Shown here: piece by piece, positions 14,468-41,613 of the stretch | How positions within the stretch are numbered: position 1 is the first letter of the stretch | Layout of the letters: each line of letters starts with the position of its first letter | UHGV virus genome: UHGV-0324072 | Source: a virus | Reading direction: 5' to 3' (one strand) | Length of the DNA: 43,215 bases | The notes under the pieces: model-generated | Seen by the model: the letters and a program-made list of their open reading frames with translations, nothing else | What the model was told of the DNA's origin: nothing | Database searches by the model: none | Made by a program: the position numbers and the translations under genes

Positions 14468-14487
14468 AAGGCCCCGCTAGGGGCCTT
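14468..14487. terminator. bidirectional hairpin terminator AAGGCCCC-gcta-GGGGCCTT
   Basis: perfect 8-bp GC-rich stem between convergent genes. Confidence 0.6.
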
Positions 14488-14491
14488 AGCT

Positions 14492-15145
14492 TTAACGTAT
14501 ATTAGCCGCACATTTACGCACAACCCGAGGTATCGCCTCTTTCAGTTCACCCCATGTATTAACGGCCTCCATGTCAAGAAGTGTCACCAGAGCTTTCTGG
14601 ATGTCACTTCGCAACTGATTGGTCTTCGCATCCTGAGAGTCCCATGTATCGAAACCCGTTACGTCGCGGATATCTACGGATTCCTTTACCGCTTTAGCCA
14701 CCTGTATGAAGTGTCCACTGTGGCCAATTCTTCCCTCCGTGCGCTCAATCATTCGACTAACGGCAGCGTTAAGCTCGACAAAGCTCACCGCGCCAATGTT
14801 TCGTAGTTCTACCTGCCGTTGTGTGATAAAGCGGTCGATAACGAGGAAATGGAAATAGGCGCTGTATTGCTCAGCAATATATACTGCCAGATGGAGACAT
14901 GCAAAGGTGCGACCGTTTCGGCCTTTCGTCGCCCTTATGGCATTCTCGATTCCGAGTTGTTTTTCGCATTCCTCCTTGAAAATCTTGAAGCCATCCGTTG
15001 CCATGACCTGGCGAAGCTCTCTTGCCCCCATGCCGTTGTCTAAACGCCAACGGTTCATCTGGTCAACCAGCTCGTTTACGTTAATAAAGTTTTCACGGTC
15101 AAAAGTGATTTCTCCATAAGGGAACTCTAATGTTTGCAGTTTCAT
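14492..15145 (-). CDS. KilA-N domain protein (217 aa), reverse-oriented insertion
   Basis: KGRNGRTFACLHLAVYIAEQYSAYFHFLVIDRF resembles the KilA-N core; ATG 15145 with AGGAG RBS. Confidence 0.5.
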   Translation of the reverse strand: MKLQTLEFPYGEITFDRENFINVNELVDQMNRWRLDNGMGARELRQVMATDGFKIFKEECEKQLGIENAIRATKGRNGRTFACLHLAVYIAEQYSAYFHFLVIDRFITQRQVELRNIGAVSFVELNAAVSRMIERTEGRIGHSGHFIQVAKAVKESVDIRDVTGFDTWDSQDAKTNQLRSDIQKALVTLLDMEAVNTWGELKEAIPRVVRKCAANIR

Positions 15146-15172
15146 GCGTATTTCTCCTGTTTAAGTGTACGT

Positions 15173-15202
15173 TTAAATTCTACATTTGAATGTAGAATTT
15201 AA
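15173..15202. promoter_or_regulatory. perfect 13-bp-arm palindrome (candidate operator) upstream of KilA-N gene
   Basis: TTAAATTCTACAT-ttga-ATGTAGAATTTAA; overlaps candidate minus-strand promoter TTGATT-N18-TAGAAT (15177..15206). Confidence 0.5.
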
Positions 15203-15287
15203 TCAAGCTCTTTTTAACCTTAAATGTGTATGATTATGCCAATACGTTACCGACTGATATGATTGTCATATCGAAACAGGAGGGTAT

Positions 15288-16331
15288 ATGAGCTTACTGA
15301 CATCTCTAATCAGCCACCAGATTTGGCTGCAACGCGCCGCATCCGGTGAAGTAAAAGACCTCGCACCATTCATTCAGGAAATGCGGGACGAAATCAAACG
15401 GCAGGTGCTGTTATTCGGTGACGACGGTCGCAGCACTGCGCGACTGAATAAACTGTTACGCGACCTGGAAGAAGCACTAACCGGTATTACGGGTGGCTGG
15501 CAAACAAAGCTAACAGACGACCTTAAGGAACTGGCGGCGTACGAGGCTGAGTGGAACGTAAAGACACTGACCGCCAACGTAGACGCGGAATTTGTTACGC
15601 CTACCGCTGAGCAGGTATGGGCCGCTGCCGAGTTTCAACCATTATCATTGAGCGACAAGCCCGTTGATTTCACCAAGCTGATGTCTGGATGGGGCGAAAC
15701 GGAAGTAGCACGTCTTGTAACTGGAGTTAAGATGGGCTTTGTGCAAGGTCAAACCACACGGCAGATTGTTAAGAATGTTGTTGGCGCTGGTGGACTAGCC
15801 GACATCTCAGAACGTAACGCGACTACGGTAATCCGCACCGCGCTGTCCCACGTATCCAACGAGGCCCGTAACGAGACGTACCGCCAGAACGACGACATCA
15901 TCGAGAAATATGAGTGGGTGTCAACTTTGGACAGCCGTACCAGCACGATTTGCAGGGCCAGAGACGGAATGACGTGGGAAATCGGTAAAGGCCCGATGCC
16001 ACCAGCCCATCCTAATTGCCGAAGTACCACTGCACCGGTAATCAGTTCAGAGTTCGACTTCCTTGATAAAGGCGCAAAACGTGCGGCTAAGGGTGCGGAC
16101 GGCGGTACTCAGGTAAGCGCAGACACCACCTATTACGAGTTCCTGAAACAACAACCAGCATGGTTTCAGGACCAGGCGCTCGGTCCTGTTCGCGGTAAGA
16201 TTTTCCGTAACAGCGGTATATCGCCGGAAGAGTTTCGCGTAATATCTGTAGATGGTTTCGGGAATCCGCTCACGCTTAAGCAGATGGCGGAACTCGATAA
16301 ACGTGTTGCTGATTATCTGAAAGGGGATTAA
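15288..16331 (+). CDS. head morphogenesis / minor head protein
   Basis: 347-aa ORF after portal; RBS AGGAGGG; called by position. Confidence 0.55.
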   Translation: MSLLTSLISHQIWLQRAASGEVKDLAPFIQEMRDEIKRQVLLFGDDGRSTARLNKLLRDLEEALTGITGGWQTKLTDDLKELAAYEAEWNVKTLTANVDAEFVTPTAEQVWAAAEFQPLSLSDKPVDFTKLMSGWGETEVARLVTGVKMGFVQGQTTRQIVKNVVGAGGLADISERNATTVIRTALSHVSNEARNETYRQNDDIIEKYEWVSTLDSRTSTICRARDGMTWEIGKGPMPPAHPNCRSTTAPVISSEFDFLDKGAKRAAKGADGGTQVSADTTYYEFLKQQPAWFQDQALGPVRGKIFRNSGISPEEFRVISVDGFGNPLTLKQMAELDKRVADYLKGD

Positions 16332-16792
16332 TGACGGGCTTTTTCAAAGTAACTGATGTGCCGTCACGTCGCGTAGTCCAGTACGCTCGTGTGTCTGGCT
16401 CCGGTGAGAACGTAACCTACGTTGAGGATGAAAGTGTACTAGGTACACCTGTAGACGAGATGCCGTACGCAGACAAGACAGGTATCGCACTCTCTGCTGC
16501 TGGTATGCTTTATGAAATTCCGTATCTGGCTGACGCAGGCGATGTGTATTTCTCTGTACAACCGCAGGACGTTGAACTGGCAGATGGCAGCGCAACTATC
16601 ACTGTCGAAGTTAAGGCGGGTAAATCCCCCTATGCACTGGCCTGGTACAAAGACGGCAAGGAAGTAGTAAACGCGCCCGAAGAGGCTTTGTCTCTGACGG
16701 TTAACGCGGTCGGTGAATACTTCGTTAAAGTTACCGATTCCGATGGTGTAGCGGCCGTCAGTAAAGCAGCGAAGGTCACTAAGCCAGACTGA
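16331..16792 (+). CDS. Ig-like domain protein (153 aa)
   Basis: ALAWYKDGKEVV...GEYFVKVTDSDG Ig-like strand pattern. Confidence 0.45.
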   Translation: MTGFFKVTDVPSRRVVQYARVSGSGENVTYVEDESVLGTPVDEMPYADKTGIALSAAGMLYEIPYLADAGDVYFSVQPQDVELADGSATITVEVKAGKSPYALAWYKDGKEVVNAPEEALSLTVNAVGEYFVKVTDSDGVAAVSKAAKVTKPD

Positions 16793-16795
16793 TAA

Positions 16796-16816
16796 AAGGC
16801 CCCATTACGGGGCCTT
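16796..16816. terminator. bidirectional hairpin terminator AAGGCCCC-attac-GGGGCCTT
   Basis: between convergent genes 16331..16792 and 16822..17025. Confidence 0.6.
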
Positions 16817-16821
16817 AGTTT

Positions 16822-17025
16822 TCAACGGAATTTTGTGTTTAAATCCTGCTCATGGACAACCCTCAGAACAGTGTCATAATCCCCGTATCTTCCAGGTTCA
16901 AATATATCTAATGCCTTGTAAGCAGACATTGCGTCAGGGAAAACCTGCAGAACCTTTTTAACCCGGCACAAGTCACCGTCGAACTCTTCATCGAACTCTT
17001 GAACTACTTCGCAAATTGCATACAT
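16822..17025 (-). CDS. hypothetical protein (67 aa), reverse-oriented insertion with own promoter
   Basis: ATG 17025, RBS AGGAGG; promoter 17053..17081. Confidence 0.5.
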   Translation of the reverse strand: MYAICEVVQEFDEEFDGDLCRVKKVLQVFPDAMSAYKALDIFEPGRYGDYDTVLRVVHEQDLNTKFR

Positions 17026-17052
17026 TTTTCACCTCCTGTTTAAGTTAACTGA

Positions 17053-17081
17053 ATAGTACCCTATTATATTGGGGTGTGCAA
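17053..17081 (-). promoter_or_regulatory. promoter TTGCAC-N17-TACTATTCA (minus strand)
   Basis: rc of 17053..17081; 31-bp core almost identical to 26174..26204. Confidence 0.5.
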
Positions 17082-17133
17082 ACTATTTATTTACGTATTC
17101 CAGTTATTCCTCCGAATTGTAAATGTTGGAATA

Positions 17134-17149
17134 AACTATTCGAATAGTT
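17134..17149. promoter_or_regulatory. perfect 16-bp palindrome AACTATTCGAATAGTT (candidate operator)
   Basis: self-complementary; overlaps TTGACT (17148..17153) of a candidate plus-strand promoter. Confidence 0.45.
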
Positions 17150-17182
17150 GACTTTTCACTAAAAATATGATAAGCTCCACCT

Positions 17183-17383
17183 GAGCTTGTGAAGTATGAA
17201 CAAGCGACCGCGGCGCGGGCAGGTAACGGAGCGGGACGTAAGTCCTGAGTGTAGTTACGCTGACGCGTTCGGAAGGGCCATACTCTATTGCTTGTGTAAA
17301 AAGTAACTGGTTTACTGAGATTACGCCGTTTCTATGTTTAAATGATAAGGACTAGCGCCCCGCTTTATGGCGGGGCTTTACTT
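17183..17383 (+). ncRNA. candidate small RNA or leader transcript, ending at terminator 17357..17383
   Basis: about 200 bp with no ORF over 37 codons, between candidate promoter (TTGACT 17148 / TAAGCT 17171) and GCCCCGC-tttatg-GCGGGGC plus TTTACTT. Confidence 0.2.
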
Positions 17384-17400
17384 ATCGAGAAAGGGGAAAC

Positions 17401-17787
17401 ATGAATCTTAAAGCAACTGTCGTAGCAGGAGCATGTTTCATCATCCTGGTTTACACACACGGCATCTACCAGTATCGCAGCGGATGGAACGAAGGCCGGG
17501 CTAATCTCGTTTCGCAGCAACAGCAGAAAGCACAGGCTGAGTTAGCGAAGAAAACACAACGGCAGCAGCAGGATGAATCGAAGGCCGCCGCCGCTGACAA
17601 CGAAGGCAAGACGAAATCAGAGGTGATTACCCGTGAAGTCGTTAAGTACATTAAAACGCCTGGTCGCAGCGTGTGCACTTTTGACCCTGAGCGCGTGCAG
17701 CTCAAGTCCCGCGCCGTCGCCAACGCCAATTCCATCCCCGGATACGACGATGATGCAGCCGCCGTGCAAACTGGCGCAGCCAAGTAG
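17401..17787 (+). CDS. i-spanin (Rz-like)
   Basis: N-terminal transmembrane segment TVVAGACFIILVYTHGIY then Gln/Ala-rich coiled-coil region; contains the embedded o-spanin ORF. Confidence 0.55.
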   Translation: MNLKATVVAGACFIILVYTHGIYQYRSGWNEGRANLVSQQQQKAQAELAKKTQRQQQDESKAAAADNEGKTKSEVITREVVKYIKTPGRSVCTFDPERVQLKSRAVANANSIPGYDDDAAAVQTGAAK

Positions 17788-17896
17788 CGACGCTGATGAG
17801 GATTTGGCCGTCGACGTTCAGAATGCTGAATGCGTACGGCAACTGAGACTGAAAGTGTTCATGTTGCAGGATTACGTGAGGAATATTCTGGAATAG
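17633..17896 (+). CDS. o-spanin (Rz1-like lipoprotein), +1 frame, overlapping 3' end of i-spanin
   Basis: signal peptide with lipobox LTLSAC, proline-rich PAPSPTPIPSPD, Cys residues. Confidence 0.55.
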   Translation: MKSLSTLKRLVAACALLTLSACSSSPAPSPTPIPSPDTTMMQPPCKLAQPSSDADEDLAVDVQNAECVRQLRLKVFMLQDYVRNILE

Positions 17897-17978
17897 TTGC
17901 CTTGCATGTTGGAATAATTTATTCTTGACATGTAAATCCGGGTGGCCCGGGTTCCAACGTCCAGGGGACATACTGACT

Positions 17979-18680
17979 ATGAATCGTTTTTTACGTTATC
18001 CGTTCCAGGAAGAAGCTGGGGCAGAAGATAAAGCTGGTGGCGGTGACGCGCCGAAAATGTTCACCGCTGAAGAAGTTCAGGCGCTGATTGAGAAAGAAGT
18101 TGCCGGGCTTAAGGCTAATCAGGAAGCATTGTTGGCGGAGAAGAAAGAAGCCGCTCGCAAAGCAAAAGAGGCCGAAGAAGAACGGCAGCGCGCGCACCAG
18201 GAGGCGTTAAAAGCCGCTGGTAAGATGGATGAGTTCGAAAAGACGATTCGTAGCCAGTACGACCCTGTGTTAGCCGAGAAAGACGGTCGCATCTCCAGAA
18301 TGGCAGAGCGTATCCTCGGCAGCGAACGTAAAGCGGTGCTAGGCTCTTTCGCGGGTGACTTTATTACCCCAGAAGCAGTGGACATTCTTGCGCCGTTCGT
18401 TAAGACTGAGTTCGAAGGCGATGATGTGGTTACTAAGTTTGTTGGTGCAGACGGTAACGTAATCACGACTGACCCGGAACAGTTCCGCAAATACCTGCGC
18501 GAACACAAGGCGTTTTCGCATTTGATCAAAGCAAATGCAGCTTCCGGCGGCGGGGCTTCCGGTAGCAAAGGCGGCGGGGCCGCACCAGCATTTAAAGACA
18601 TGAGTGAAGCAGAGCGTTTAGCCCTGTATAAATCGAACCCTGCCGAATTTGAACGGCAACTTAAAGCCCTGAGGAAATAA
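17979..18680 (+). CDS. putative scaffolding protein
   Basis: ATG 17979; Ala/Glu/Lys-rich helical protein directly upstream of capsid gene; called by position. Confidence 0.5.
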   Translation: MNRFLRYPFQEEAGAEDKAGGGDAPKMFTAEEVQALIEKEVAGLKANQEALLAEKKEAARKAKEAEEERQRAHQEALKAAGKMDEFEKTIRSQYDPVLAEKDGRISRMAERILGSERKAVLGSFAGDFITPEAVDILAPFVKTEFEGDDVVTKFVGADGNVITTDPEQFRKYLREHKAFSHLIKANAASGGGASGSKGGGAAPAFKDMSEAERLALYKSNPAEFERQLKALRK

Positions 18681-18682
18681 TA

Positions 18683-19732
18683 ATGGCAATTACCACTATC
18701 GGCGATATCGTAACTGGCAACATCCCGGTCCTGGCGTCTTATATGACCGAGGACCCGGTAGAAAAAACCGCGTTCTTCCAGTCTGGTATTCTGACCCCGA
18801 CCCCATACGCCGCCGAGATTGCCCGCGGCCCGTCCAACGTCGCTAATATTCCTTTCTGGAAAGCGATTGATACCTCTATCGAGCCGAACTACTCGAACGA
18901 CGTATACCAGGACATCGCCACCCCGCGTAACGTGCAGACCGGCGAGATGATGGCGCGCGTTGCGTACCTGAACGAATGTTTCGGTCAGGCGGATTTGACC
19001 GTTGAACTGACCAGCCAGAACCCGCTGCAATCCGTAGCGTCACGTCTGGATAACTTCTGGCAGCGTCAGGCACAACGCCGTCTGATTGCTACCGCGCTCG
19101 GGCTGTACAATGACAACGTAGCCGCTACCGACGCATACCACGAGCAGAATGACATGGTAATCGACGTGTCTGCTACTCTGGGCTTCGATGCGGGCGCGTT
19201 CATCGACGCTACCCAGACTATGGGCGATGCTCTGATGGGCAACGGCGGTGAAGTGCTGGGGGCTATCGCGATGCATAGCTTCGTTTATGCGCAGGCACGT
19301 AAGCAGCAGCTTATCGACTTCATCCGTGACGCGGACAACAACACCATGTTCGCCACCTACCAGGGCTACCGCGTGATTGTTGACGACAGCATGACCGTAG
19401 TCGGCACTGGCCCGACCAGTAAGTTCATCTCCATCATCTTCGGCAACGGCGCTATCGGTTACGGTGAAGGTTCTCCGTCCAACCCGCTGGAATACGAGCG
19501 CGAAGCGTCCCGCGGCAACGGCGGCGGCGTTGAAACCCTGTGGACCCGTAAGACCTGGTTGCTACATCCGTTTGGTTACAGCTTCACCAGCGCAGTAATC
19601 ACCGGTAACGGCACCGAGACTGTCGCACGTTCTGCTTCCTGGCAGGACCTGGCGAACGCCTCCAACTGGAACCGTGTGGTTGACCGCAAGCACGTACCGA
19701 TTGCCTTCCTGGTAACTGGTGTCGGTGCTTAA
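18683..19732 (+). CDS. major capsid protein
   Basis: 349-aa ORF after scaffold; strong RBS; followed by a terminator; called by position. Confidence 0.65.
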   Translation: MAITTIGDIVTGNIPVLASYMTEDPVEKTAFFQSGILTPTPYAAEIARGPSNVANIPFWKAIDTSIEPNYSNDVYQDIATPRNVQTGEMMARVAYLNECFGQADLTVELTSQNPLQSVASRLDNFWQRQAQRRLIATALGLYNDNVAATDAYHEQNDMVIDVSATLGFDAGAFIDATQTMGDALMGNGGEVLGAIAMHSFVYAQARKQQLIDFIRDADNNTMFATYQGYRVIVDDSMTVVGTGPTSKFISIIFGNGAIGYGEGSPSNPLEYEREASRGNGGGVETLWTRKTWLLHPFGYSFTSAVITGNGTETVARSASWQDLANASNWNRVVDRKHVPIAFLVTGVGA

Positions 19733-19746
19733 GGTTAAGCTATAAT

Positions 19747-19776
19747 CGAGAGGGACTTCGGTCCCTCTTTTCATTT
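19747..19776 (+). terminator. rho-independent terminator after capsid gene
   Basis: GAGAGGGAC-ttcg-GTCCCTCTT then TTCATTT. Confidence 0.6.
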
Positions 19777-19791
19777 ACTAAGAGGTAAATT

Positions 19792-20091
19792 ATGGTCAAG
19801 ACCGGAAAAGGCTTGCCGCGCAGCCTTCAGAATGTCGATTTCGGCGACTTTGATATCCCAGTCACGCCTGCTACTACCAGCGTAGTTGGTGGGGTTAAAA
19901 AGTCAGCTACTGTAGCCGCACCTGCGGCGGTTACCGCTGGTAAAGGAGCGCAGTCCGCCGCGGCACCGACTAAGGGAGAGTTCGACGCCCTTGTAGCGGA
20001 GTACAACAAACTCCGAACCGATGTTACCGCGCTGCGCACTACCGTAGCAAATCTGTTGACTGCGCTTAAAAACGCAGGAACCGTAAGCTAA
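19792..20091 (+). CDS. hypothetical structural protein (99 aa)
   Basis: ORF track; RBS AGAGG. Confidence 0.45.
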   Translation: MVKTGKGLPRSLQNVDFGDFDIPVTPATTSVVGGVKKSATVAAPAAVTAGKGAQSAAAPTKGEFDALVAEYNKLRTDVTALRTTVANLLTALKNAGTVS

Positions 20092-20103
20092 AGGAGCTTA
20101 AAA

Positions 20104-20454
20104 ATGGTTGATGTAATCAAACGTCGTATTACCGGTGTTTCTGATGATTCTCCTGCCGATGGTCAGGTTGAAATCGATATGGCGAATATCTCGCCAGCGT
20201 CTTTTTCTACCGCGCTTGCGGCTACCACCGTAACTGCGGTGGGGCATACTATGACTCTTACCGTAGTGGTAACTGGCGGTCTGGAGCCGTATTCCTACCA
20301 GTGGTACAAAGATAACAACGCCATCGACGGAGCCACCGCAGCTACCTATGCGAAGGCGTCCACTACTACCGCAGATTCAGGCACGTATAAAGTGGTTGTT
20401 CACGATGTGTATGGTAATATTATCTCCAGCAGCACCGTAGCAACTGTGTCTTAA
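20104..20454 (+). CDS. Ig-like domain protein, candidate capsid decoration protein
   Basis: YQWYKDNNAIDGATAATYAKASTTTADSGTYKVVV Ig-like pattern. Confidence 0.45.
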   Translation: MVDVIKRRITGVSDDSPADGQVEIDMANISPASFSTALAATTVTAVGHTMTLTVVVTGGLEPYSYQWYKDNNAIDGATAATYAKASTTTADSGTYKVVVHDVYGNIISSSTVATVS

Positions 20455-20490
20455 TACAACGGCCCTTCGGGGCCGTAATAAGGAAAGGTC

Positions 20491-20670
20491 ATGGCAGATA
20501 ATTACGTAATCCGCGAAAAGTATACCCACGTTGATATCGTTGACGGACAGGTGATGCCTGTTCGCGGTGTGGTAGAAGCGGATGAACTGGTTGCAACCCA
20601 ACCAGACAATGAAGAAGCGCACAACAACGGCGGTGGTACTAAGCGTCGTCGCCGTAAGTCAGAGGAATAA
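20491..20670 (+). CDS. small hypothetical protein (59 aa)
   Basis: ATG 20491 behind AAGGAAAGG; below track cutoff. Confidence 0.35.
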   Translation: MADNYVIREKYTHVDIVDGQVMPVRGVVEADELVATQPDNEEAHNNGGGTKRRRRKSEE

Positions 20671-20673
20671 TTT

Positions 20674-21186: not shown

Positions 21187-21188
21187 AA

Positions 21189-23200: not shown

Positions 23201-23202
23201 AT

Positions 23203-24369
23203 ATGGCTACAACTCCTTTTAAGGGCGCGAATACCGCGCAATTCTATGTGGCGGAAGTGACCCCGGGTGTAACACCGACTAACCCGGTCTGGTCACCATT
23301 ACGTAACACGGGCGGTGTTCCTGCCATTACCCGTGACACACTGACCTCCAACGAACTCGACGGCAGCCGTGAAACTACATCCATCCGCACCGGTAACAAA
23401 CAGGTTAGCGGTGAATACGCAATTGAGCTTAGCTCTAAAAGCCAGGATGACTGGTTGGCAGGTGCTTTAGGCTCTACGTGGCGATCCGGTGTTTCTCTGC
23501 CAGGACTATCGATCACCGTCGCACCCGCGGGCAAGACGTTCACACGCGCTACCGGCAGTTTTATCACTGACGGAGTTGGGGTAGGCGACCTGATTGCGTT
23601 TACCGACTTAACAGGCGATAACGCAAAACCATTTATTGTTACCGCAGTAACGGCTACCGTTGTTACTGGTGCAGGCATCCAACACACCCTGACCACCGAG
23701 ACAAAAACTAGTAAGGCTAAAACTGGCGACACGCTGGAAACCGGTAACACATGTAAGACGTTCTCTATTCTCACCTGGTACAAAGGACAGTGCGGCGGGA
23801 CTTACGCATACACACTAACCAAAGGTGTGGAAGTTTCCGGTTTCACCGTTGAGCAGGCCGTTAACGCGATGGTTACAGGTAGCTTCCCGTTCATCGGGCG
23901 CAGCCAGGAGATTCTTACTACGCCGCCGTCTGGTTCCAACTTCTCCTCTGTCACGTTTGGTGATGAGCCATTCTCCTCGGTTGACGTTTCTGTGTTTGAC
24001 GGCTATACGCCGTTGCGTTGCGACAGCCTGACCATCACCAACGACAACAGCGCATCCGCGCAGTTCGAACTCGGCAACACTAACGTAGCGTTTGTAGAAC
24101 GTAACCGCGCGGCTAACACCTTCTCCATCTCCGGCAAGCTGTATGACATGGCGATGATTCAGAAGTTTATCAACGAGCAGCAGGTAGAGATTAACTCTAT
24201 TCTGGCGGGGGTAAACGGGGCTATGTCTTTCAGTTTGAAACGTGCGGAGCTTACGGCAGTTACCCCAGAGATTGGCGGACCTGAGTCAATCACTCAGTCC
24301 ATTGAAGGCCAGGCTACTGGCAACCAGTACCAGTCGTCTATTGTTATTCAGCGTATCACCTACGCATAA
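23203..24369 (+). CDS. major tail protein (tail tube)
   Basis: ATG 23203 (RBS AGAGG); about 390 aa, Thr/Gly-rich; followed by a strong terminator; called by position. Confidence 0.55.
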   Translation: MATTPFKGANTAQFYVAEVTPGVTPTNPVWSPLRNTGGVPAITRDTLTSNELDGSRETTSIRTGNKQVSGEYAIELSSKSQDDWLAGALGSTWRSGVSLPGLSITVAPAGKTFTRATGSFITDGVGVGDLIAFTDLTGDNAKPFIVTAVTATVVTGAGIQHTLTTETKTSKAKTGDTLETGNTCKTFSILTWYKGQCGGTYAYTLTKGVEVSGFTVEQAVNAMVTGSFPFIGRSQEILTTPPSGSNFSSVTFGDEPFSSVDVSVFDGYTPLRCDSLTITNDNSASAQFELGNTNVAFVERNRAANTFSISGKLYDMAMIQKFINEQQVEINSILAGVNGAMSFSLKRAELTAVTPEIGGPESITQSIEGQATGNQYQSSIVIQRITYA

Positions 24370-24373
24370 AACT

Positions 24374-24398
24374 AAGGCCCCGAAAGGGGCCTTTTTTA
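24374..24398. terminator. bidirectional terminator AAGGCCCC-gaaa-GGGGCCTT plus T-run
   Basis: perfect 8-bp stem followed by TTTTTATT. Confidence 0.65.
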
Positions 24399-24629
24399 TT
24401 ACTCATCAATGTTACTCCTGTACTCCCGTAACTTTTCCAGACTTTCAATTGCTTCCGCTAAGTCGGTTCCGGTGTCCTTGTGTCCACGTAAACCCATGCA
24501 CAATAGCTTCTTCAATGCGTGCTGTAACGCCGGGTCGCGGATGTCGAAAGCGCGGAGCACATCATAAACGTCTACTGTCATAGTGCTGCCGTGAGTATTT
24601 GTCATTGTGCGGTTGTATTTTGAAGTCAT
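24399..24629 (-). CDS. small protein (76 aa), possibly DUF3310-like; third gene of reverse cassette
   Basis: ATG 24629 overlaps stop of upstream gene (ATGA); VYDVLRAF...QHALKKLL motif recalled from DUF3310. Confidence 0.4.
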   Translation of the reverse strand: MTSKYNRTMTNTHGSTMTVDVYDVLRAFDIRDPALQHALKKLLCMGLRGHKDTGTDLAEAIESLEKLREYRSNIDE

Positions 24630-25756
24630 CCCAGCATCTCCGGTGAAATAGTTAAACGTGCGACCTCGCCATATTCGGCGCTATAAGTAATTACGTTTGC
24701 GCTACGCCCAGACATCCATCCGCCGCGCGAGGCGTAGGCGTCTTTCGCCGCTAAGGTGCGGTGTTGCTCAACAATCATGTTACGGCTTTCTACAATCTTC
24801 TGGTGGTGCAGGTGGCCTACGTGGGCGTAGCTGTAAACACTCTCGCCGAACGCTTTACGGAACTTGGCAATCATAACCGGTTCGATAGCGTAGAATCGTG
24901 CTTTATGCCCGTGATGGAAGAACAGCGTCGTTTTGCCGTGTTGCACCATCTTGTAAACATCCGGCGACGTATCAACAATCACTCGGCTGTCGTTTGAGTA
25001 TAAAACCGTGAACATTTCGGCAAGCCATACGGAGCCAACAGGGTCGTGGTTACCTTGAACGATTAAAAGTTTTACTGTGTGATGCTTAACCAGCGCCATA
25101 TCAACAACACGGCGGACCATACGAATCATGTAACGTACCAGTTTCTGATAGCGAGTATCCGCATCTAATACATGGCGCGACTCGGGGGTAACGGCATCAA
25201 GACTATCGAAGTGTGCGAAGTCCCCAAGCAGGTTAATAACTCCTGTTCCTGCATCCGGTGCTTTCTGAAACGCCGCGTCGAACCACCGAGAGAACAGGTC
25301 TTCTGCAATCTTCATGTCCCAGTCGTCGCCGCTCTCATCGGCCCATGCCAGCATACCGAGATGGAAATCAGATACAGTGTAAAGATTGAGTAGCTTGTCG
25401 TCACGTTTGGCGCGCGCCGCTTTAACAGGCGCAACGGGCGTAATCTCTGACTTCATGCCCTCTATTACGGCTTTCATCAATTCAACCTGACGTTCGGCGT
25501 CGGTATCAGTCTTAACCCATTGCAACTTAGTGTTGCCGAACTCGTCCACAAGTGACGACGTTCCTTTAATCTTGTAGCCGTCTGGCACAAGGTGGCTAAC
25601 GTCGCGCCCGTGGCCCACGCCTTTCTTAGCCAGCTTCGCTTTACGGATACGAATTACGCGGTCTGAGATGCCGTATTTACGGGCGATATCTACATTCTTC
25701 ATACCGGCGTTCAATTCTTCCTGCAACTGTTCGTCGGTTATTTTCTTCCGGGCCAT
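24626..25756 (-). CDS. N-terminal HTH fused to calcineurin-like (Mre11/SbcD-type) metallophosphoesterase
   Basis: phosphoesterase motifs in order: SDFHLG, LGDFAHFD, QGNHD, FFHHGHK, GHLHH; N-terminal KNVDIARKYGISDRVIRIR HTH-like segment; RBS GAGGA. Confidence 0.6.
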   Translation of the reverse strand: MARKKITDEQLQEELNAGMKNVDIARKYGISDRVIRIRKAKLAKKGVGHGRDVSHLVPDGYKIKGTSSLVDEFGNTKLQWVKTDTDAERQVELMKAVIEGMKSEITPVAPVKAARAKRDDKLLNLYTVSDFHLGMLAWADESGDDWDMKIAEDLFSRWFDAAFQKAPDAGTGVINLLGDFAHFDSLDAVTPESRHVLDADTRYQKLVRYMIRMVRRVVDMALVKHHTVKLLIVQGNHDPVGSVWLAEMFTVLYSNDSRVIVDTSPDVYKMVQHGKTTLFFHHGHKARFYAIEPVMIAKFRKAFGESVYSYAHVGHLHHQKIVESRNMIVEQHRTLAAKDAYASRGGWMSGRSANVITYSAEYGEVARLTISPEMLG

Positions 25757-25820
25757 GCTTATTCCTCGTGCTTAGGATTTGTCCTATTTAACCACAGTGG
25801 ATTCCTTTAAATAAAGGCAA

Positions 25821-26147
25821 CTATTTACTTTCTGCGCCTATCGCCCACCCTGTCATTACCATTTGCAGACGGGTGGCTGTCAGTAGGCTATAGAAAGCAT
25901 CTCCGTTTTTCTCTACCGAACGTATCACTGTGTAGGTTACGGCCTGCGGGGGTAGGTCCGATTTACCAACCTCTACAGCGGCCTCACACTCGCGAACCGT
26001 AGAGTCCTTAAATGCCTTTACGATAGTAGGGTCAGCTTTCTCAAGCACACCAGAAGTCATAAGAACAGATTCAGTAAATACCTGTTCGCACGGGGACCCA
26101 AAAGTAGCAAAAGGCATAAACCCCAGAGCTAATACTAATTTACGCAT
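25821..26147 (-). CDS. secreted/periplasmic protein (108 aa) with N-terminal signal peptide; first gene of reverse cassette
   Basis: MRKLVLALGFMPFATFG signal-like N-terminus, two Cys; RBS GAGGA; promoter at 26176..26204. Confidence 0.5.
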   Translation of the reverse strand: MRKLVLALGFMPFATFGSPCEQVFTESVLMTSGVLEKADPTIVKAFKDSTVRECEAAVEVGKSDLPPQAVTYTVIRSVEKNGDAFYSLLTATRLQMVMTGWAIGAESK

Positions 26148-26175
26148 AATTATTTCCTCAGTAAGTTACAGGTGA

Positions 26176-26204
26176 ATAGTACACTATTATATTGGGGTGT
26201 GCAA
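26176..26204 (-). promoter_or_regulatory. promoter TTGCAC-N17-TACTATTCA (minus strand) driving reverse cassette
   Basis: rc of 26176..26204; near-identical to 17053..17081. Confidence 0.5.
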
Positions 26205-26271
26205 GTAATGTGATAGAATAATTTTGCGCCTAGTGTCGCACACGAAAAGCGGGTGGTTCCCGTCTGGCGCA

Positions 26272-26298: not shown

Positions 26299-26311
26299 AA
26301 AGGATTAAAGA

Positions 26312-30795: not shown

Positions 30796-30798
30796 TTT

Positions 30799-31314
30799 AT
30801 GAGCCAGGAATCTGTAGAAGCCGCCTATCGCCGTAAGCTGGCCTCAAATCCCGACGGCGAGATGGACTACATCACGTTGCAAATCAGCCACCCGTTGTTG
30901 TCAAAGACGTACTATCTTGTTCGTGGGCTACAGGAACTCACGGCAACACTGGAGACAGGCGAAATTATCACGTTCGAGCCAACCCCGATGGAGGCGTCGG
31001 GGGCGGCTAACAACAGTGATATGGACCAGACGACTACGTTTACTTTACCGGATATTCTCAATCAACTTGACGATGAGATGGATAAAATCCCGATGAGTAA
31101 CACCGAGTTGCCGAAATTCCTCTTCCGCCGTTACGTCAGCACTGACCTGTCTTATCCGGCTGACGGTCCTGTCGTGTACGAGTTACAGGCCATCAACCAG
31201 GAGAAGGGCGAGTTCTCCGCGGATGTCGGTACACCTATGCTGAACCAACGAAGCACTGGTATACTGATGACACCTAAAGAGATACCGTTATTACGCGGCC
31301 TGTTGACCACATGA
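30799..31314 (+). CDS. minor tail protein (lambda gpL-like position)
   Basis: position. Confidence 0.4.
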   Translation: MSQESVEAAYRRKLASNPDGEMDYITLQISHPLLSKTYYLVRGLQELTATLETGEIITFEPTPMEASGAANNSDMDQTTTFTLPDILNQLDDEMDKIPMSNTELPKFLFRRYVSTDLSYPADGPVVYELQAINQEKGEFSADVGTPMLNQRSTGILMTPKEIPLLRGLLTT

Positions 31315-31676
31315 ATATTAACGACTACACGGGAATACCTTACGACTTTCGCAAACGCAATTGCTGGCACCACGTTCGCATTGTCCGCGCGGATGCGGGG
31401 TTAGAAACTCCGGCGTTCGACGTTACAAGCCCGACTGCAATTAACGAAGCGTTTGACGAAGGCCACCGTGACACGAAGGGGCTTACTAAAATAGATATGC
31501 CTGAAAACTTCTGTGCGGTGCTTATGGGGTATCGCCGCGGTGGTCGTATCGTGTGGCACGCTGGAGTTTACTTCGACGGGATGGTCAGCCATTGCGAGCT
31601 TGCCTCACGTCAGGTACGGCTCGACAGGCTGGCGGACCTCAGAGACACGTACACGGAGATTGAATTTTGGCGATAA
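31311..31676 (+). CDS. NlpC/P60-family tail assembly protein (lambda gpK-like)
   Basis: Cys...His...His pattern NCWHHVRIV, HAGVYFDGMVSHCE. Confidence 0.55.
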   Translation: MNINDYTGIPYDFRKRNCWHHVRIVRADAGLETPAFDVTSPTAINEAFDEGHRDTKGLTKIDMPENFCAVLMGYRRGGRIVWHAGVYFDGMVSHCELASRQVRLDRLADLRDTYTEIEFWR

Positions 31677-34234
31677 TCCTGCACTACACGCGAAACGCTG
31701 ATGGCGCTTTCAACCGTACAAAACACGTCGGGATGCCGATGGAGTTTGTCGTTAACCGTATCCCGGACGGCGTTCCGGTACGCGTCTATCTTGGCGAGAT
31801 TGGTGATGATACTGATGTTACAGACGACTTCGACGCGCTCAAAGACGAGGACGCCGTGTACCACATTATTGAGGGCGCTGGCGGCGGCATTGGCGACGCC
31901 ATCGGGAGTGTATTCAGTTTCATCCTTAAGCCAATCGCCAAATTGTTCGGGCTAAACACAGCGGCTAACGCTAATTATTCCGCTACCAACAATCAGGCTA
32001 CGTCGCCTAACAACAGTCTCACCGACCGCTCAAACAAGCCACGACCTTATGAGCGTTCCTATGATATCTGCGGGACAGTGCAGACCATCCCCAATGACCT
32101 GATGCAGACATATAAGGTGTTTAATGCCGCGGGTGCGCTTATTGAATATGCGTACTATGACGCCGGTCGAGGGTATCTGCATATTGAGGAAGACGGTGTA
32201 ACTGAGGCAGATACCCGAATCAGCGAGATAACTGGCTCGTCGGTGACGGTGTATTCTCCTTACACTTCGCCGAATAACACCAGCACACCACAATTGCATA
32301 TCGGCGACCCTATAGACCAGAAATTGTACGTTACATTTAAAAACGCCGATGTCGATGGCGCTGTTCTTCCCGCCCCTAATGATATCGCTATAGACGTGCA
32401 GGACTACACTGTCCAGCGGCAGGGAACAACCGGCGTTGTAGTAGGCGATGACGCTGGTTTCGATGAGTTTTTGGCGGTCGGGGACCTGGCATACTTCGAT
32501 AACGTATATGCAGATACAACCCCAGGGTCTTTGGGTAATGAGGTTAACCTGGACGGGAGGTACACGGTTCTTTCGGTTAGTGAAACCACCCTTATTGTGG
32601 ACGTCAGTACAAATCAATCAGTATGGAACCAGCTAGGGGCGTCTGTGTGGTTTATAGGTGAAGAGGGTAACCATCTTATAGGCCCGGCGGACACTTACGC
32701 GGCTTCTCTCTCTGAATGGGCGTACATCACCCGCGGTACTGTCGACCGTGTTGTAGCCAATGTCGCCGCCAGCAACGGCATGTATAAATACAACGGCGAC
32801 TATAACCGCGCTTCAGTGACAGTCGAACTGCAATACCAGATGGTTGATGAGTTGAAACGGCCCGTAGGTGATATATTCACCGTACAAGGAACTTTAACAG
32901 GCAGGAACACGGATTACACTGGGATAACTCTTTACGGAAGTTTACCAACTGCTTCCAGATTCCGCGCCCGTATGCGTCGTGTTTCTGACACCGATAAAGA
33001 TTTTGAGGGTACTGTTAGCGACGAGGTTACTTTCACTAACCTGTACGGACAGTCTCTGGACACAACACCGCACTACGGCAACCGCACTACGGTGCACTGT
33101 GCCCGTAAACAAACCCCACGTGCAGCCGAGGTGTCAGAACCGGAACTGCGCATGATTGCTACCGAGATGTGCTACAAATACTTAGGTAACGGCGTATTCG
33201 ATACGGTAATGACACCGAACACTCAGGCCGTGCAGTCGCTAATCAGGCTGGCGCGTGACCCTGTGGTGGGTAATCTGGAACTGACAACGGCAAATATGGA
33301 CAAGTTACTTGCCGTGCAGGAAGAAATTGAGTCGTATTTTGACAGTGAATTAGCCGGGCAGTTCTGCTACACATTCGACGACTACGACACAACCATGCAA
33401 GACATCGTTCAGACCATCGCGGAAGCCGTGTTTTGTACGGCATACCGTAAAGGTGCTGATATTATGCTGCGATTCGACCGTCCTGTTGCGGGGCCTGAGA
33501 TGGTTTTCACCCACCGCAGCAAAACGACCGGTACGGAGAAATGGACGCGCACGTTCAACGATTCGACAACCTACGATAGCCTGTCGTTCTCGTACATTGA
33601 CCCGGATACAAACGTACAGGAGACGATTTATATCCCGGAAGAACTCGGCGCGAACACCGAGGAGTACGAATCGAAGGGTGTACGTAACTATCAGCAAGCG
33701 TACTGGCTGGCGTGGCGTCGCTACCAGCGCAATGCGTTAAGTAAAGTTGTCGTAGAGTTCGAAGCTACCGAAGAAGGCGCTCTAGCTACTCCCGGCGGCG
33801 TAATCAGCGTGGTTAAAGGCTCCCGCATCGCGCCGCAGGATGGTTATGTTGTCGCCGTTAATGGGCTTACGCTTACGCTGTCGCAGCCGGTTACGTTTAC
33901 TCCTGGTGATGACCATTCCATCATTCTTAAGAAGCGCGACGGCTCTGTGCAGAGTATTTCTGTTATCAAAGGAAGCCACGACCGCGAAGTGATTATGCTC
34001 TCCGCGCCGGAGGAGGCAATCTACACGGGGAATAGTGCGCTAAAAACTGAGTTTTCATTCGGCAACGAAGCAAGGCATAATGCTCAGAAGATAGTTGTTT
34101 CTTCAATCGACCCCGGCGACGACCGCACGGTCAAGATTACGGGCTACAACTATGATGACGGATTCTATAAATACGACGGCGTCGCGCCATACGGCAGCGG
34201 TTTCTCCGACGGATTCAGCAATGGTTTTAATTAA
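31667..34234 (+). CDS. central tail tip / host specificity protein (lambda gpJ-like)
   Basis: 855 aa; position after gpK-like gene; start codon uncertain (TTG 31667, or ATG near 31733). Confidence 0.55.
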   Translation: MAIILHYTRNADGAFNRTKHVGMPMEFVVNRIPDGVPVRVYLGEIGDDTDVTDDFDALKDEDAVYHIIEGAGGGIGDAIGSVFSFILKPIAKLFGLNTAANANYSATNNQATSPNNSLTDRSNKPRPYERSYDICGTVQTIPNDLMQTYKVFNAAGALIEYAYYDAGRGYLHIEEDGVTEADTRISEITGSSVTVYSPYTSPNNTSTPQLHIGDPIDQKLYVTFKNADVDGAVLPAPNDIAIDVQDYTVQRQGTTGVVVGDDAGFDEFLAVGDLAYFDNVYADTTPGSLGNEVNLDGRYTVLSVSETTLIVDVSTNQSVWNQLGASVWFIGEEGNHLIGPADTYAASLSEWAYITRGTVDRVVANVAASNGMYKYNGDYNRASVTVELQYQMVDELKRPVGDIFTVQGTLTGRNTDYTGITLYGSLPTASRFRARMRRVSDTDKDFEGTVSDEVTFTNLYGQSLDTTPHYGNRTTVHCARKQTPRAAEVSEPELRMIATEMCYKYLGNGVFDTVMTPNTQAVQSLIRLARDPVVGNLELTTANMDKLLAVQEEIESYFDSELAGQFCYTFDDYDTTMQDIVQTIAEAVFCTAYRKGADIMLRFDRPVAGPEMVFTHRSKTTGTEKWTRTFNDSTTYDSLSFSYIDPDTNVQETIYIPEELGANTEEYESKGVRNYQQAYWLAWRRYQRNALSKVVVEFEATEEGALATPGGVISVVKGSRIAPQDGYVVAVNGLTLTLSQPVTFTPGDDHSIILKKRDGSVQSISVIKGSHDREVIMLSAPEEAIYTGNSALKTEFSFGNEARHNAQKIVVSSIDPGDDRTVKITGYNYDDGFYKYDGVAPYGSGFSDGFSNGFN

Positions 34235-34246
34235 AGAGGACTCTAT

Positions 34247-36178
34247 ATGTCAAGCGGATGCGGTGACGTTTTAAGCCTGGCGGATTTACAAACCGCCAAG
34301 AAACACCAAATTTTTGAAGCCGAGGTTATCACCGGTAAAGCTGGCGGTGTAGCTACGGGTGCTGATATCGATTACGCGACAAATCAGGTTACAGGGCAGA
34401 CTCAGAAGACGCTCCAGGCCGTGTTGCGTGACGCCGGGTTCAGACCTGCGCCATTCACATTCGAAACAGGTGGGACTTTGGGCGTTAACGACGCTGACCT
34501 GGCGGTGTTGTGGCCAGGGCCATCAGGCGACGGCAACTATTATGCATGGAAAGGCGCCCTGCCAAAAACCATCCCGGCATCTTCAACCCCGGCGTCTACG
34601 GGCGGAGTAGGCCAGACCGCATGGGTTGCCGTTAGTGAAGCTGCATTGCGCCGTGATTTGGCCCTAAGCACTGGCGCAGGGCTAGTCGGTACGTCTTCGG
34701 GTCGCACAGTGCAAGGCGAGGTTGACCATTTCAAAATAGGGTATATGACACCCGATGATTTCGGCGCGGTGGGTGATGGTGTTACCGACGACACCGCGCC
34801 TTTGCAACAGGCTATTGACTATTGCTCAAGCAACGGTATCGCGTTAAGAATCCCCGCAAAATCTTATGTTTGGAATGGCGGTATTATAACTTCACCCGTA
34901 ACAATAATCGGTGACAGACGTCCTGATTACAATCTTAGCTCCAATTCTATGTCTAACGGGTCTGTTATAATTGGCAATTTAAGATTTTCCGCAAGCCAGG
35001 TGATTATTAAGTCACTTGGTGTGCGTAGGCCTACAGGCTCCCCCGGAGATTGTCTGGTGTTATCGACCGATAACTATGCTGGTGGGTCTTGTATTGTTCA
35101 AGATGTAGTTGCCGCGGGCCTTTCCGGTTCGGACACGTACCACAGCGTTCTTGTTGAAGGCTACGATTCCGCGCATGTATCTCAAATAACTGGCGGTTAT
35201 AATCTTTTTGGCCTCGCGATTAAGTCAAGAAACGTTGTTGCCAGAGGCGTAATAACCGTAAGCTGTGATACTGGCGTTATCATTAAATCTGATAGTGAGT
35301 TCAGCACGGCAAAAAATGTGGTGCTGGACGGGCACATTAATGTCGGTAATGGTGTTTCTAGTCAAGGTGTTTGGATTCACAGCACAACCGCACAACTTGA
35401 GCGTATTACCTGCGCAAACTTACAAAGCATCGATTCCGCTATACATATGCGGATTAAGTCCGAAAACGTAGCTAATGACGTGCAAATTGTTGGGGCAAAT
35501 TATTCAGGATCTACTTATGCGGATGTGCTCGTCGAAGGCACTTCGGCTGGCACGTTGTACAATGTTAGTTTAGATAGTATAACCGCAGTAAATAGCCAGA
35601 AATTTATGGCTGCAGGTTTCTGTGAACAACTGATGGTAACAGGATTCTATGGGTCCCTGAAACCTGGCGCTCCCGCCGATACTGCGTTTGAGGTTAGCGC
35701 CGCCGTAGGGCTTTTTAGCGGGTCAAATATCCAACTAGTCCGTCAATACCGCAGTGACCTAATGACAATGAATCTCGGTAACAGTTATCTTAATAATAGA
35801 TTATCATCTGTTAAGGCGAAAGTAATAGGAAACGGCAAACCTAGGCCGGGGTATAAAGAACAGAATCTTAGCGGCGCTGCGGCTACAATGATTGTTGGCG
35901 ACAGTTTGGGGCCCTCTGGTGTTGTGTCTGTCACCGCGATATCCGCCGGCATGTCATTCAGCAGTATTGCTATTAATGACGACTATGGTCAGCCGGTTAA
36001 GCCAGGTTTTCTTCTAATAATCCGAAACGCATCCGCTATCTCGTTCGTTATGAACCATAATCCAGGGTCTGGTGGAATCGCAAATAACGGGGCGGTTGGT
36101 AAGACCATTGCGGGCGGAGACACTATAATGTACGTTTTTGACGGGGCGAATTGGCGTCAGACTCCATCAATAACATAA
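34247..36178 (+). CDS. tailspike protein with pectate-lyase-type right-handed beta-helix
   Basis: MTPDDFGAVGDGVTDDTAPLQQAIDY beta-helix entry motif; 643 aa; RBS AAGAGGA. Confidence 0.7.
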   Translation: MSSGCGDVLSLADLQTAKKHQIFEAEVITGKAGGVATGADIDYATNQVTGQTQKTLQAVLRDAGFRPAPFTFETGGTLGVNDADLAVLWPGPSGDGNYYAWKGALPKTIPASSTPASTGGVGQTAWVAVSEAALRRDLALSTGAGLVGTSSGRTVQGEVDHFKIGYMTPDDFGAVGDGVTDDTAPLQQAIDYCSSNGIALRIPAKSYVWNGGIITSPVTIIGDRRPDYNLSSNSMSNGSVIIGNLRFSASQVIIKSLGVRRPTGSPGDCLVLSTDNYAGGSCIVQDVVAAGLSGSDTYHSVLVEGYDSAHVSQITGGYNLFGLAIKSRNVVARGVITVSCDTGVIIKSDSEFSTAKNVVLDGHINVGNGVSSQGVWIHSTTAQLERITCANLQSIDSAIHMRIKSENVANDVQIVGANYSGSTYADVLVEGTSAGTLYNVSLDSITAVNSQKFMAAGFCEQLMVTGFYGSLKPGAPADTAFEVSAAVGLFSGSNIQLVRQYRSDLMTMNLGNSYLNNRLSSVKAKVIGNGKPRPGYKEQNLSGAAATMIVGDSLGPSGVVSVTAISAGMSFSSIAINDDYGQPVKPGFLLIIRNASAISFVMNHNPGSGGIANNGAVGKTIAGGDTIMYVFDGANWRQTPSIT

Positions 36179-36182
36179 AACT

Positions 36183-36205
36183 AAGGCCCCGTTTGGGGCC
36201 TTTTC
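36183..36205. terminator. bidirectional terminator AAGGCCCC-gttt-GGGGCCTT between tailspike and replication module
   Basis: perfect 8-bp stem flanked by T-rich tracts. Confidence 0.65.
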
Positions 36206-36206
36206 T

Positions 36207-41593: not shown

Positions 41594-41613
41594 GATTTTC
41601 GACCCTTAGTAAA

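Follow-up and report, generated by a model that had tools for sequence, protein, structure and literature searches.

UHGV-0324072 is a virus genome of 43,215 nucleotides, given here as one strand and called the window over its full length. It belongs to an E. coli siphophage of the genus Kagunavirus (Guernseyvirinae), the structural region of which is 95.6% identical to that of Escherichia phage GertrudWoker_Bas73 (Bas73). A compact, G/C-rich hairpin with the stem AAGGCCCC/GGGGCCTT recurs at four places in this genome, and at each of them it lies between convergent open reading frames (ORFs), separating the portal gene (+) from rev217 (-), an Ig-like decoration gene (+) from rev67 (-), the major tail gene (+) from rev76 (-) and the tailspike gene (+) from rev45 (-). 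The reverse partners are, in the same order, a 217-aa gene, a 67-aa gene, a three-gene operon and the last gene of the replication module. These hairpins, named A to D, are the subject of this text, together with a shorter hairpin E; A to D are probably two-way terminators of common origin that would form the borders of exchangeable modules in this phage family. Their positions are as follows.

14468..14487, hairpin A: AAGGCCCC-GCTA-GGGGCCTT, between the portal stop at 14462 and the rev217 stop at 14492; the stronger U tail is on the minus strand
16796..16816, hairpin B: AAGGCCCC-ATTAC-GGGGCCTT, between the stop of the Ig-like gene at 16792 and the rev67 stop at 16822
24374..24393, hairpin C: AAGGCCCC-GAAA-GGGGCCTT, between the major tail stop at 24369 and the rev76 stop at 24399; the stronger U tail is on the plus strand
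36183..36202, hairpin D: AAGGCCCC-GTTT-GGGGCCTT, between the tailspike stop at 36178 and the rev45 stop at 36207
41614..41633, minus strand, hairpin E: the shorter AAGGCCC-N6-GGGCCTT, followed by TTTTTAC on the minus strand

A pattern search for AAGGCCCC-N3-6-GGGGCCTT returns exactly four matches in the window and none in 100 dinucleotide-preserving shuffles, and the coordinates, the 8-bp stems and the loops of 4-5 nt are exactly those given by the original prediction, which had singled out this recurrence. Relaxing the pattern adds hairpin E (41614-41633, AAGGCCC-AATGAA-GGGCCTT; 0.01 expected from dinucleotide-preserving shuffles), which had been located and spelled correctly as well. At A to D, the stop codons stand 5 nt from the stem on both sides, and the gap of about 30 nt is essentially all hairpin. 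The similarity extends past the stem, with a consensus stop-AAACT-AAGGCCCC-loop-GGGGCCTT-TTTT, so the element is oriented; it reads along the plus strand at 24374 and 36183 and along the minus strand at 14468, 16796 and 41614.

The anatomy of the four hairpins is that of a terminator which can be read in both directions. Hairpins A to D have 8-bp stems with six G-C pairs, loops of 4-5 nt and calculated energies of -14.9 to -15.8 kcal/mol on either strand, while hairpin E, with a 7-bp stem and a 6-nt loop, has -11.9/-12.5 kcal/mol. In addition to the two U that close the stem, three to six U are found in the first 8 nt after it on each strand of A to D, the weakest tail being that on the plus strand of 14468 (3 U in 8). 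All four sites (14468, 16796, 24374 and 36183) combine convergent genes with a 5' A run and a 3' T run, as is looked for in bidirectional terminators, and they also have the stem and loop size, the U tract, the location after the last stop codon and the structure kept at the orthologous site by which intrinsic terminators are recognised. A scan with a terminator consensus lists 14468 (minus strand), 24374 (both strands) and 36183 (minus strand only); 16796 is not among its terminator-like sites. A search of the whole window against Rfam gave no matches at the gathering score. In the GenBank record of phage Shashou, terminators on both strands are annotated at the orthologous major-tail and tailspike junctions. 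The other strong hairpins of the window (2098, 4525, 5352, 17357 and 19748) carry their U tail on a single strand, and all of them separate co-directional genes except for one, which lies between a cro-like gene and a primase gene; since these hairpins are one-way, the AAGGCCCC class is specifically the two-way class. Stems of about -15 kcal/mol on both strands, two-sided U tails, the Shashou annotation and the conserved position of the hairpins all speak for the bidirectional terminators that had been predicted, and, as far as can be told from the letters, hairpins A to D are almost certainly bidirectional intrinsic (Rho-independent) terminators.

Two further hairpins of the window can be set beside these. 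The convergent junction at 2098-2118, between the cro-like gene (+) and the primase-helicase gene (-), holds the hairpin GAAGGGGCT-TAA-AGCCCCTTC, with a U tail on the plus strand only. This junction uses another stem, so the AAGGCCCC hairpin is not found at every convergent junction of the genome. At 20459-20478, between two co-directional head genes, lies ACGGCCC-UUCG-GGGCCGU (-14.4 kcal/mol). This hairpin, kept in Bas73, has no U tail; rather than terminating transcription, it may stabilise the mRNA or mark a point of processing or pausing.

Hairpin E stands apart from the others. The convergent setting that had been claimed for every copy is found at A to D and not at 41614, where the ssb gene (-) and a small ORF/DNA polymerase gene (-) are co-directional and the plus-strand tail, AGTTAAAT, is poor, so that the picture of a bidirectional terminator fails there. 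Across Kagunavirus, hairpin E is invariant, its loop included, and Jerseyvirus has AAGGCGGC-TTCG-GTCGCCTT at this place, with CGGC/GTCG in the stem where Kagunavirus has CCC/GGG. Such behaviour fits the vertical inheritance of a one-way terminator or attenuator that separates ssb from the small ORF/DNA polymerase, not a border of the A to D type. Because of its co-directional context and its evolutionary behaviour, 41614 was rejected as a fifth member. The stretch from hairpin E to the start of the DNA polymerase gene (41438-41640) is variable: the small ORF of the window is missing from Bas73, at least four N-terminal contexts of the DNA polymerase occur among L184-L240, and 41 loci lose homology within 40 nt of hairpin E.

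The distribution of the hairpin was followed in a comparison set of about 130 related loci (L numbers refer to these). The original prediction had proposed a search of related phages for the motif at insertion points, and there all AGGCCCC..GGGGCCT hairpins, 132 of 132 copies, lie within four slots: A between the portal and head-morphogenesis genes, B between the Ig-like and spanin genes, C between the major tail and chaperone genes and D between the tailspike and helicase genes. The slots are either empty or hold various reverse genes that abut the hairpin, in agreement with the idea that it marks insertion and module boundaries. The states of slots A to C are the following.

Slot A, empty: 20 loci; an 84-nt junction with the one-way hairpin AGCCCC-GAAA-GGGGCTTTCTT (one with a stem mismatch); 4 more loci are without the spacer
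Slot A, occupied: 17 loci, 145-1726 nt; 11 with the AAGGCCCC hairpin (one imperfect); about 10 unrelated gene contents
Slot B, empty: 10 loci; mostly AAGCCCC-GAAA-GGGGCTTTTT
Slot B, occupied: 26 loci; 25 with the hairpin; 10 gene contents
Slot C, emptiness not scored: a single hairpin, followed by 1-7 genes in a reverse operon

Bas73 is an example of the empty state, with AGCCCC-GAAA-GGGGCT in slot A, no reverse gene and no hairpin A. In Bas73 (L001, 3327-3362) and 20 other loci, the stem-loop of empty slot A is followed by TATAGTATGCTATTA, which resembles the promoter palindrome described below; this composite of a stem-loop and a promoter-like sequence is reminiscent, by analogy, of the promoter-early stem-loop (PeSL) elements of T4-type phages.

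Conservation is strongest in the stem. At slot C, the identical stem persists as the identity of the major tail protein falls from 99% to about 68%. Farther out among the relatives, its place is taken by other G/C stems, such as AAAGGGGC-TTAG-GCCCCTTT, AAGGGCC-GAAA-GGCCCTT, GGGGCC-TAAC-GGCCCC and AAAGCCCC..GGGGCTTT, and the stem cores found across relatives are GGCCCC, GGGGCC, GGGGC, GGGCC and GCCCC. In an alignment of 15 distinct versions of this site, 98.3% of the cells are paired and 4 of the 8 pairs have changed on both sides, a degree of pairing which only 0-1 of 500 shuffles reach; the sequences were chosen with a hairpin finder, so the telling point is that different stems share one position. 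Hairpin D has the same stem after TAAAACT in about 50 loci, whatever the last codons of the tailspike and with different tailspikes upstream.

The loops behave differently, with 30 different ones against an essentially invariant stem and immediate flanks. At a given site, the commonest loops form reverse-complement pairs, namely GAAA/TTTC after the major tail gene and AAAC/GTTT after the tailspike gene (loop sites 24382-24385 and 36191-36194, compared with L124-L240). Nine reverse-complement loop pairs were counted where 1.7 were expected, a level not attained in any of 5000 simulations. The asymmetric flanks of the hairpin are not flipped; taken together with the excess of reverse-complement loops, this indicates that the hairpin or the loop alone inverts in place often. 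Template switching across a perfect palindrome gives such inversions, as in quasipalindrome mutagenesis and in the hairpin inversions of chloroplasts, and by analogy it may be the mechanism here. Concerted evolution within the genome was considered as the source of the stem identity and was rejected, all four loops of the window being different.

The reverse genes in slots A to C are organised as cassettes with similar borders. In the window, they consist of the following features.

14492..15145, minus strand: rev217, the cassette gene of slot A; PHROG 6095, with a weak N-terminal match to KilA-N
15177..15206, minus strand: promoter-like site of rev217, TTGATT-18-TAGAAT, with the palindrome ATTCTACAT-TCAA-ATGTAGAAT
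16822..17025, minus strand: rev67, the cassette gene of slot B, family F15
17046..17081, minus strand: predicted promoter of cassette B, TTGCAC (17081-17076)-N17-TACTAT (17058-17053), with the palindrome AATAG-N4-CTATT
24399..26147, minus strand: reverse operon of slot C, composed of rev76, rev376 (metallophosphoesterase / "DNA repair exonuclease") and rev108
26172..26205, minus strand: predicted promoter of cassette C, 97% identical to 17050-17081

At its far end, a cassette has its start codon, one of two or three types of leader (e.g. CTCCTGTTTAAGTTAACT) and then GAATAGTACCCTATTATATTGGTGTCTGCAA, beyond which the sequence is specific to the slot. Read on the minus strand, GAATAGTACCCTATTATATTGGTGTCTGCAA is the sigma-70-type, promoter-like TTGCAC-N17-TACTAT, and it is the right border in slots A, B and C; at cassette B, the sequence common to empty sites resumes at TATTCCAGTTATTCC. 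The same promoter class appears to precede early genes on the plus strand at 5459 and 6648, and the cassettes may likewise be transcribed early. With a hairpin, a reverse gene and a promoter-like site, and with presence or absence varying between relatives (A empty in 20 of them, B in 10), the cassettes would qualify as morons. An extended -10 promoter-like site follows each reverse cassette (TGATATGAT at about 15254, and TGATAAGCT and TGATAGAAT, read from the sequence), so the structural segments downstream would not need to rely on read-through.

Some details of these cassettes deserve mention. The KilA-N label which the gene at 14492..15145 had received is a weak one, with 20.4 bits against a Pfam cut-off of 23.8. 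The gene occurs at the same slot in L135 (99.5% amino acid identity) and in Jerseyvirus L123 (87.5%) and is missing from 20 relatives. The product of rev76 (24399-24629, minus strand) aligns to longer PHROG families only along some 70 positions at their C-terminal end, for example positions 150-220 of the 235 of phrog_2452, and one of the matched families is annotated as an ATPase; rev76 may be a truncated remnant of cassette replacement. Downstream of cassette B, the stretch 17160-17400 holds an extended -10 site (TTGACT-17-TAAGCT with TG), then a basic ORF of 36 codons (MNKRPRRGQV..) and then a one-way, terminator-like hairpin (17357-17376) immediately before the spanin gene. This arrangement is present in all slot-B loci and resembles a leader/attenuator or a small gene.

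The palindrome AATAG-N4-CTATT is part of about nine promoter-like repeats, and 10 matches were counted against 1.1 in shuffles. The repeats lie at 1800-1829, 1844-1873, 5445-5484, 6628-6680, 17046-17081, 26172-26205, 38773-38802 and 42332-42361. They fall into two classes, TTGCAC-N17-TACTAT (plus strand at 5459, 6648 and 1848; minus strand at 17051 and 26174) and TTGACA-N17-TATAGT (minus strand at 1804, 38778 and 42336). To judge by its appearance, the palindrome could serve a phage regulator as operator; in one paper, the repeat was named a "phage RNA polymerase promoter", and no phage RNA polymerase is annotated.

Comparison of the cassettes among relatives points to their movement. Family F10, which is sliding-clamp-like, is found in slot B in 8 loci and in slot A in 2, family F18 is found in slots B and C, and family F27 in A and B. 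When the F10 cassettes of the two slots are aligned, homology begins exactly at AAAAGGCCCC and stops at the promoter -35, the outer flanks being unrelated. In L152 and L123, a single extra slot-C gene lies between two hairpin copies. Between the window and L135, the portal gene has a mismatch every 10-20 nt up to 14466, followed by 3 in about 830 nt, a stretch that takes in hairpin A and the cassette; the amino acid identity is 82% for the portal and 99.5% for rev217. Hybrid hairpins are found in L153, L147, L172 and L130, each with the left arm and flank of the occupied allele and the right arm and flank of the empty allele. The acquisition of accessory genes by a common mechanism, one of the two explanations first offered for the repeated hairpin, is consistent with cassettes that share hairpin and promoter borders and with the same gene in different slots.

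Hairpin D is the end of a different kind of module. The 3' 1.3 kb of the tailspike gene, together with the hairpin, are 98.3-98.5% identical at the DNA level to Skatevirus Bas77-80, and this homology covers window positions 34900-36208 (2501-3809 of L255, Bas77), ending about 6 nt past the stem. In Bas77-80, the hairpin lies between the tail fiber gene and a convergent ssb gene. Kagunaviruses that have other tailspikes align to the window only from 36170-36176 onward, that is, in the replication module. Since the Skatevirus block ends at about 36208 and the Kagunavirus block starts at 36170-36176, hairpin D is the overlap of two blocks of homology. These alignments indicate a recent transfer of an O16-specific tailspike domain between genera, which would have ended just past hairpin D.

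Over the comparison set, internal BLAST alignment ends fall at hairpin A in 29 loci, at B in 26, at C in 44, at D in 11 and at E in 41, which places all five sites among the commonest breakpoints; the median over 30 control junctions is about 1. By these alignments, the hairpins are major mosaic boundaries, though not the sole ones.

Beyond the relatives, the version with the GAAA loop, searched together with its flanks, occurs in 793 phage records at 1962 places, mainly in Guernseyvirinae of Salmonella and Escherichia. The Guernseyvirinae records listed have mostly 2-6 places each, and other enterobacterial phages have single copies. BLAST found the same version in 2 of 5,426 complete E. coli genomes, in one of them on a plasmid. 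The only chromosomal match, NZ_OW968111.1 1481407-1481435, lies under or beside an annotated phage tailspike gene, which suggests that the hairpin accompanies tailspikes in prophages too. An origin as a host terminator was rejected on these numbers (2/5,426) for the GAAA-loop version only, BLAST being blind to other loops. The exact 20-mer is present in at least 120 viral contigs of IMG/VR, mostly once each and mostly outside this family; among the matches listed, 104 copies could be scored (a few of them from Guernseyvirinae), and at 45% of them the neighbouring ORFs converge, with their stop codons at a distance of 4-5 nt.

Taken together, the hairpins would prevent read-through in both directions, of late transcripts from the forward structural genes on one side and of transcripts from the reverse accessory genes on the other, and the presence of one sequence at four sites would reflect common origin and not separate invention. 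A reverse cassette would be laid out as the hairpin (its 3' border), one or more genes, a Shine-Dalgarno leader and the sigma-70-type promoter TTGCAC-N17-TACTAT, and the oriented unit stop-AAACT-hairpin-TTTT would also be the 3' border of the forward major-tail module (C) and tailspike module (D). Cassettes and tailspikes would be swapped between genomes, slots and genera by crossovers in or next to the hairpin unit of about 29 bp at one end and the promoter/leader of 35-55 bp at the other, and it would be the hairpin itself, and not selection for intact intergenic punctuation, that places them. The likely agent would be the phage's own short-homology recombination, by an exonuclease and an annealing protein.

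Several points weigh against this reading. Each copy has one strand on which the U run is broken (..CCUU-AG-UUUU), and termination in that direction may be the weaker for it; with stops just 5 nt from the stem, terminating ribosomes could disturb the folding of the hairpin. In the literature searched, no mapping of transcript 3' ends was found for any Guernseyvirinae phage; the only Kagunavirus RNA-seq study there (K1B4, PMC12645636) gives gene-level timing without 3' ends or an analysis of terminators. Regarding the borders, Jerseyvirus L123 has the hairpin at an empty slot B, and the slot-A cassette of the window has a different class of promoter, common to L135 and a Jerseyvirus. Several junctions without this hairpin (21823, 30797, 36342 and 37761) are equally frequent homology breaks. 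Of the 182 divergence steps of a sliding change-point scan in 300-nt windows, only 3 fall at hairpins, though such a scan requires alignable sequence on both sides and misses replacements; counts of the ends of high-scoring segment pairs were more informative. The gap is also nearly all hairpin, so viable crossovers must map there, and their position is no proof that the hairpin promotes recombination. Lastly, the single 20-mers in many unrelated viral contigs leave room for some independent origin.

The last of these points belongs to an explanation in which a near-optimal, compact two-way terminator has arisen separately at each junction. The exact 20-mer in viral contigs mostly outside the family, often at convergent junctions, is what such convergence would produce, and so are the other, similar G/C stems that distant relatives have at the same site and the four different loops of the window, which speak against recent homogenisation within the genome. 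Against it, the identity reaches past the stem to stop-AAACT and the T run, entire F10 cassettes occur in different slots with their hairpin and with homology from its edge, and the type of hairpin tracks slot occupancy; the convergent junction at 2098 and all the one-way terminators have other stems, and the motif is near-absent from the E. coli genomes. Separate invention is thus improbable. The stable stems with GNRA-type or U-rich loops might also act on RNA, protecting 3' ends or being cut by RNase III or RNase E while the polymerase reads through, and the structural operon must indeed be expressed across slots A to C and contains a tail-less hairpin of its own (GGCCC-UUCG-GGGCC at 20461). 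A stabiliser would have no need of two-sided U tails and symmetrical A and T runs, however, the extended -10 sites after the reverse cassettes make read-through dispensable, and RNase III needs a stem longer than 8 bp, all of which renders this role very improbable. An autonomous miniature repeat, of the kind of repetitive extragenic palindromes (REP) or miniature inverted-repeat transposable elements (MITEs), that landed between genes by chance would explain a short palindrome in several copies per genome, but it is hardly credible where all copies lie in the four slots at gene 3' ends, always 5 nt from a stop codon and none elsewhere, with neither target-site duplications nor a transposase, and it was rejected because of this restriction to the slots.

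More weight falls on the alternative that recombination is the function of the element and termination is secondary, the palindrome being extruded in the DNA as a hairpin or cruciform and serving as the substrate of a phage function such as the endonuclease VII / Holliday-junction resolvase or the single-strand annealing protein of the replication module, in the manner of an integron attC site or a PeSL. Hybrid hairpins imply a crossover within the stem-loop, and the duplicated hairpins around single inserted genes, the sharp step in divergence at the hairpin edge, the cross-genus transfer that ends 6 nt past the hairpin and the variety and inversion of the loops above an invariant stem agree with this. 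Relatives also encode endonuclease VII, a Holliday-junction resolvase, an exonuclease and a Gp2.5-like annealing protein, and crossovers in PeSL stem-loops have been demonstrated experimentally in T4-type phages (PMC2839356). Yet no dedicated recombinase or integrase is annotated, a stem of 8 bp is short for cruciform extrusion, breakpoints would fall in the hairpin anyway since it fills the gap, and hairpin-free junctions break as often; changes from an empty to an occupied slot also replace the last codons of the portal gene and are thus not clean site-specific events. An active site in this strict sense is unlikely. Slightly less doubtful, if still tentative, is the broader proposal that the hairpin is the working crossover site of cassette exchange across several genera of enterobacterial siphoviruses (Kagunavirus, Jerseyvirus and Skatevirus), which would give small virulent phages a manner of gene capture like that of integrons or PeSL elements. 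Were this so, the palindrome would fold in single-stranded or cruciform DNA and be used by recombination or structure-specific nuclease functions of the phage, and accessory genes equipped with promoters, and tailspike domains as well, would be captured, moved among slots and carried across genera, and the hypervariable, often inverted loops would be its footprint. The reading as two-way terminators of common origin at module borders remains the probable one.

Elements of each of these kinds are known from other systems. Bidirectional intrinsic terminators were reportedly found by Ju, Li and Liu in 2019, through full-length RNA profiling, to be pervasive in bacteria at convergent genes. The hairpins described here resemble them in the G/C stem, the short loop, the A run and T run and the position between convergent stops, and differ in that one sequence occurs at four junctions of a 43-kb genome and appears to travel with cassettes. 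Bidirectional intrinsic terminators have been reported in phages too (PMC10204088). The morons of lambdoid phages, as cited in a later paper, consist of a promoter, a gene and a terminator between structural genes (Juhala/Hendrix 2000, via PMC2839356). According to that account, they are, like the cassettes, accessory genes with their own promoter and terminator in the late operon, present or absent among close relatives, but are thought to be without conserved flanks and to arise by illegitimate recombination, whereas here the flanks are standard, the slots are reused and the genes run backward. PeSL elements are mobile regulatory cassettes of T4-type phages (PMC2839356; PMC4122927), and indels and replacements between relatives are bounded by their motifs, with crossovers mapped inside them and sometimes in the loop (PMC2839356). 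Both systems have repeated promoter and stem-loop motifs around variable ORFs (here about 10 contents in slot A, 10 in slot B and multi-gene contents in C). The PeSL motifs, however, are joined in a single intergenic element within arrays of co-directional ORFans in hyperplastic regions, while the motifs described here stand at opposite ends of a reverse cassette in the structural operon of a small siphovirus, and there is no sequence relationship.

A 20-nt, terminator-like "motif three" after receptor-binding-protein genes has been proposed as a recombination hotspot across genera (Pas et al., 2023; PMC10408124). As with hairpin D, it is a predicted 20-nt terminator just past the tailspike stop, a comparison made by description since its alignment is an image. 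The genera for which motif three was reported are Gamaleya-, Kutter- and Justusliebigvirus, Kagunavirus not being among them, and that paper omits reverse cassettes and the other three slots. With the attC sites of integrons, the hairpin shares, by analogy only, an imperfect palindrome at the 3' end of each exchangeable cassette; unlike in integrons, there is no attI here and no integrase, none being annotated in Bas73, Shashou or AKM_CE, and general or short-homology recombination apparently accounts for the exchange. The BASEL, genome-announcement and other Kagunavirus papers list predicted terminators and the tgAATAGTa-ccTATTat repeat, and in these papers the repeat identity of the hairpins and the cassettes are not described. 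The element is thus of a known kind (terminator, moron, PeSL-like cassette), and its organisation in this phage family appears to be previously undescribed.

Kagunavirus and Jerseyvirus are common candidates for therapy and biocontrol and have been proposed as chassis for synthetic biology. Their fixed slots with standard borders, a two-way terminator unit of 29 bp and a promoter of 35-55 bp, point out where foreign genes are tolerated and the late operon is left undisturbed, the borders are ready homology arms for the swapping of cassettes and tailspikes, and the compact hairpin may serve as a bidirectional terminator part. For the biology of the family, these observations carry over to small siphoviruses the PeSL idea from large T4-type myoviruses, in which regulatory motifs double as linkers for recombination, and they tie in with the proposal that terminators behind receptor-binding genes guide the exchange of host range.

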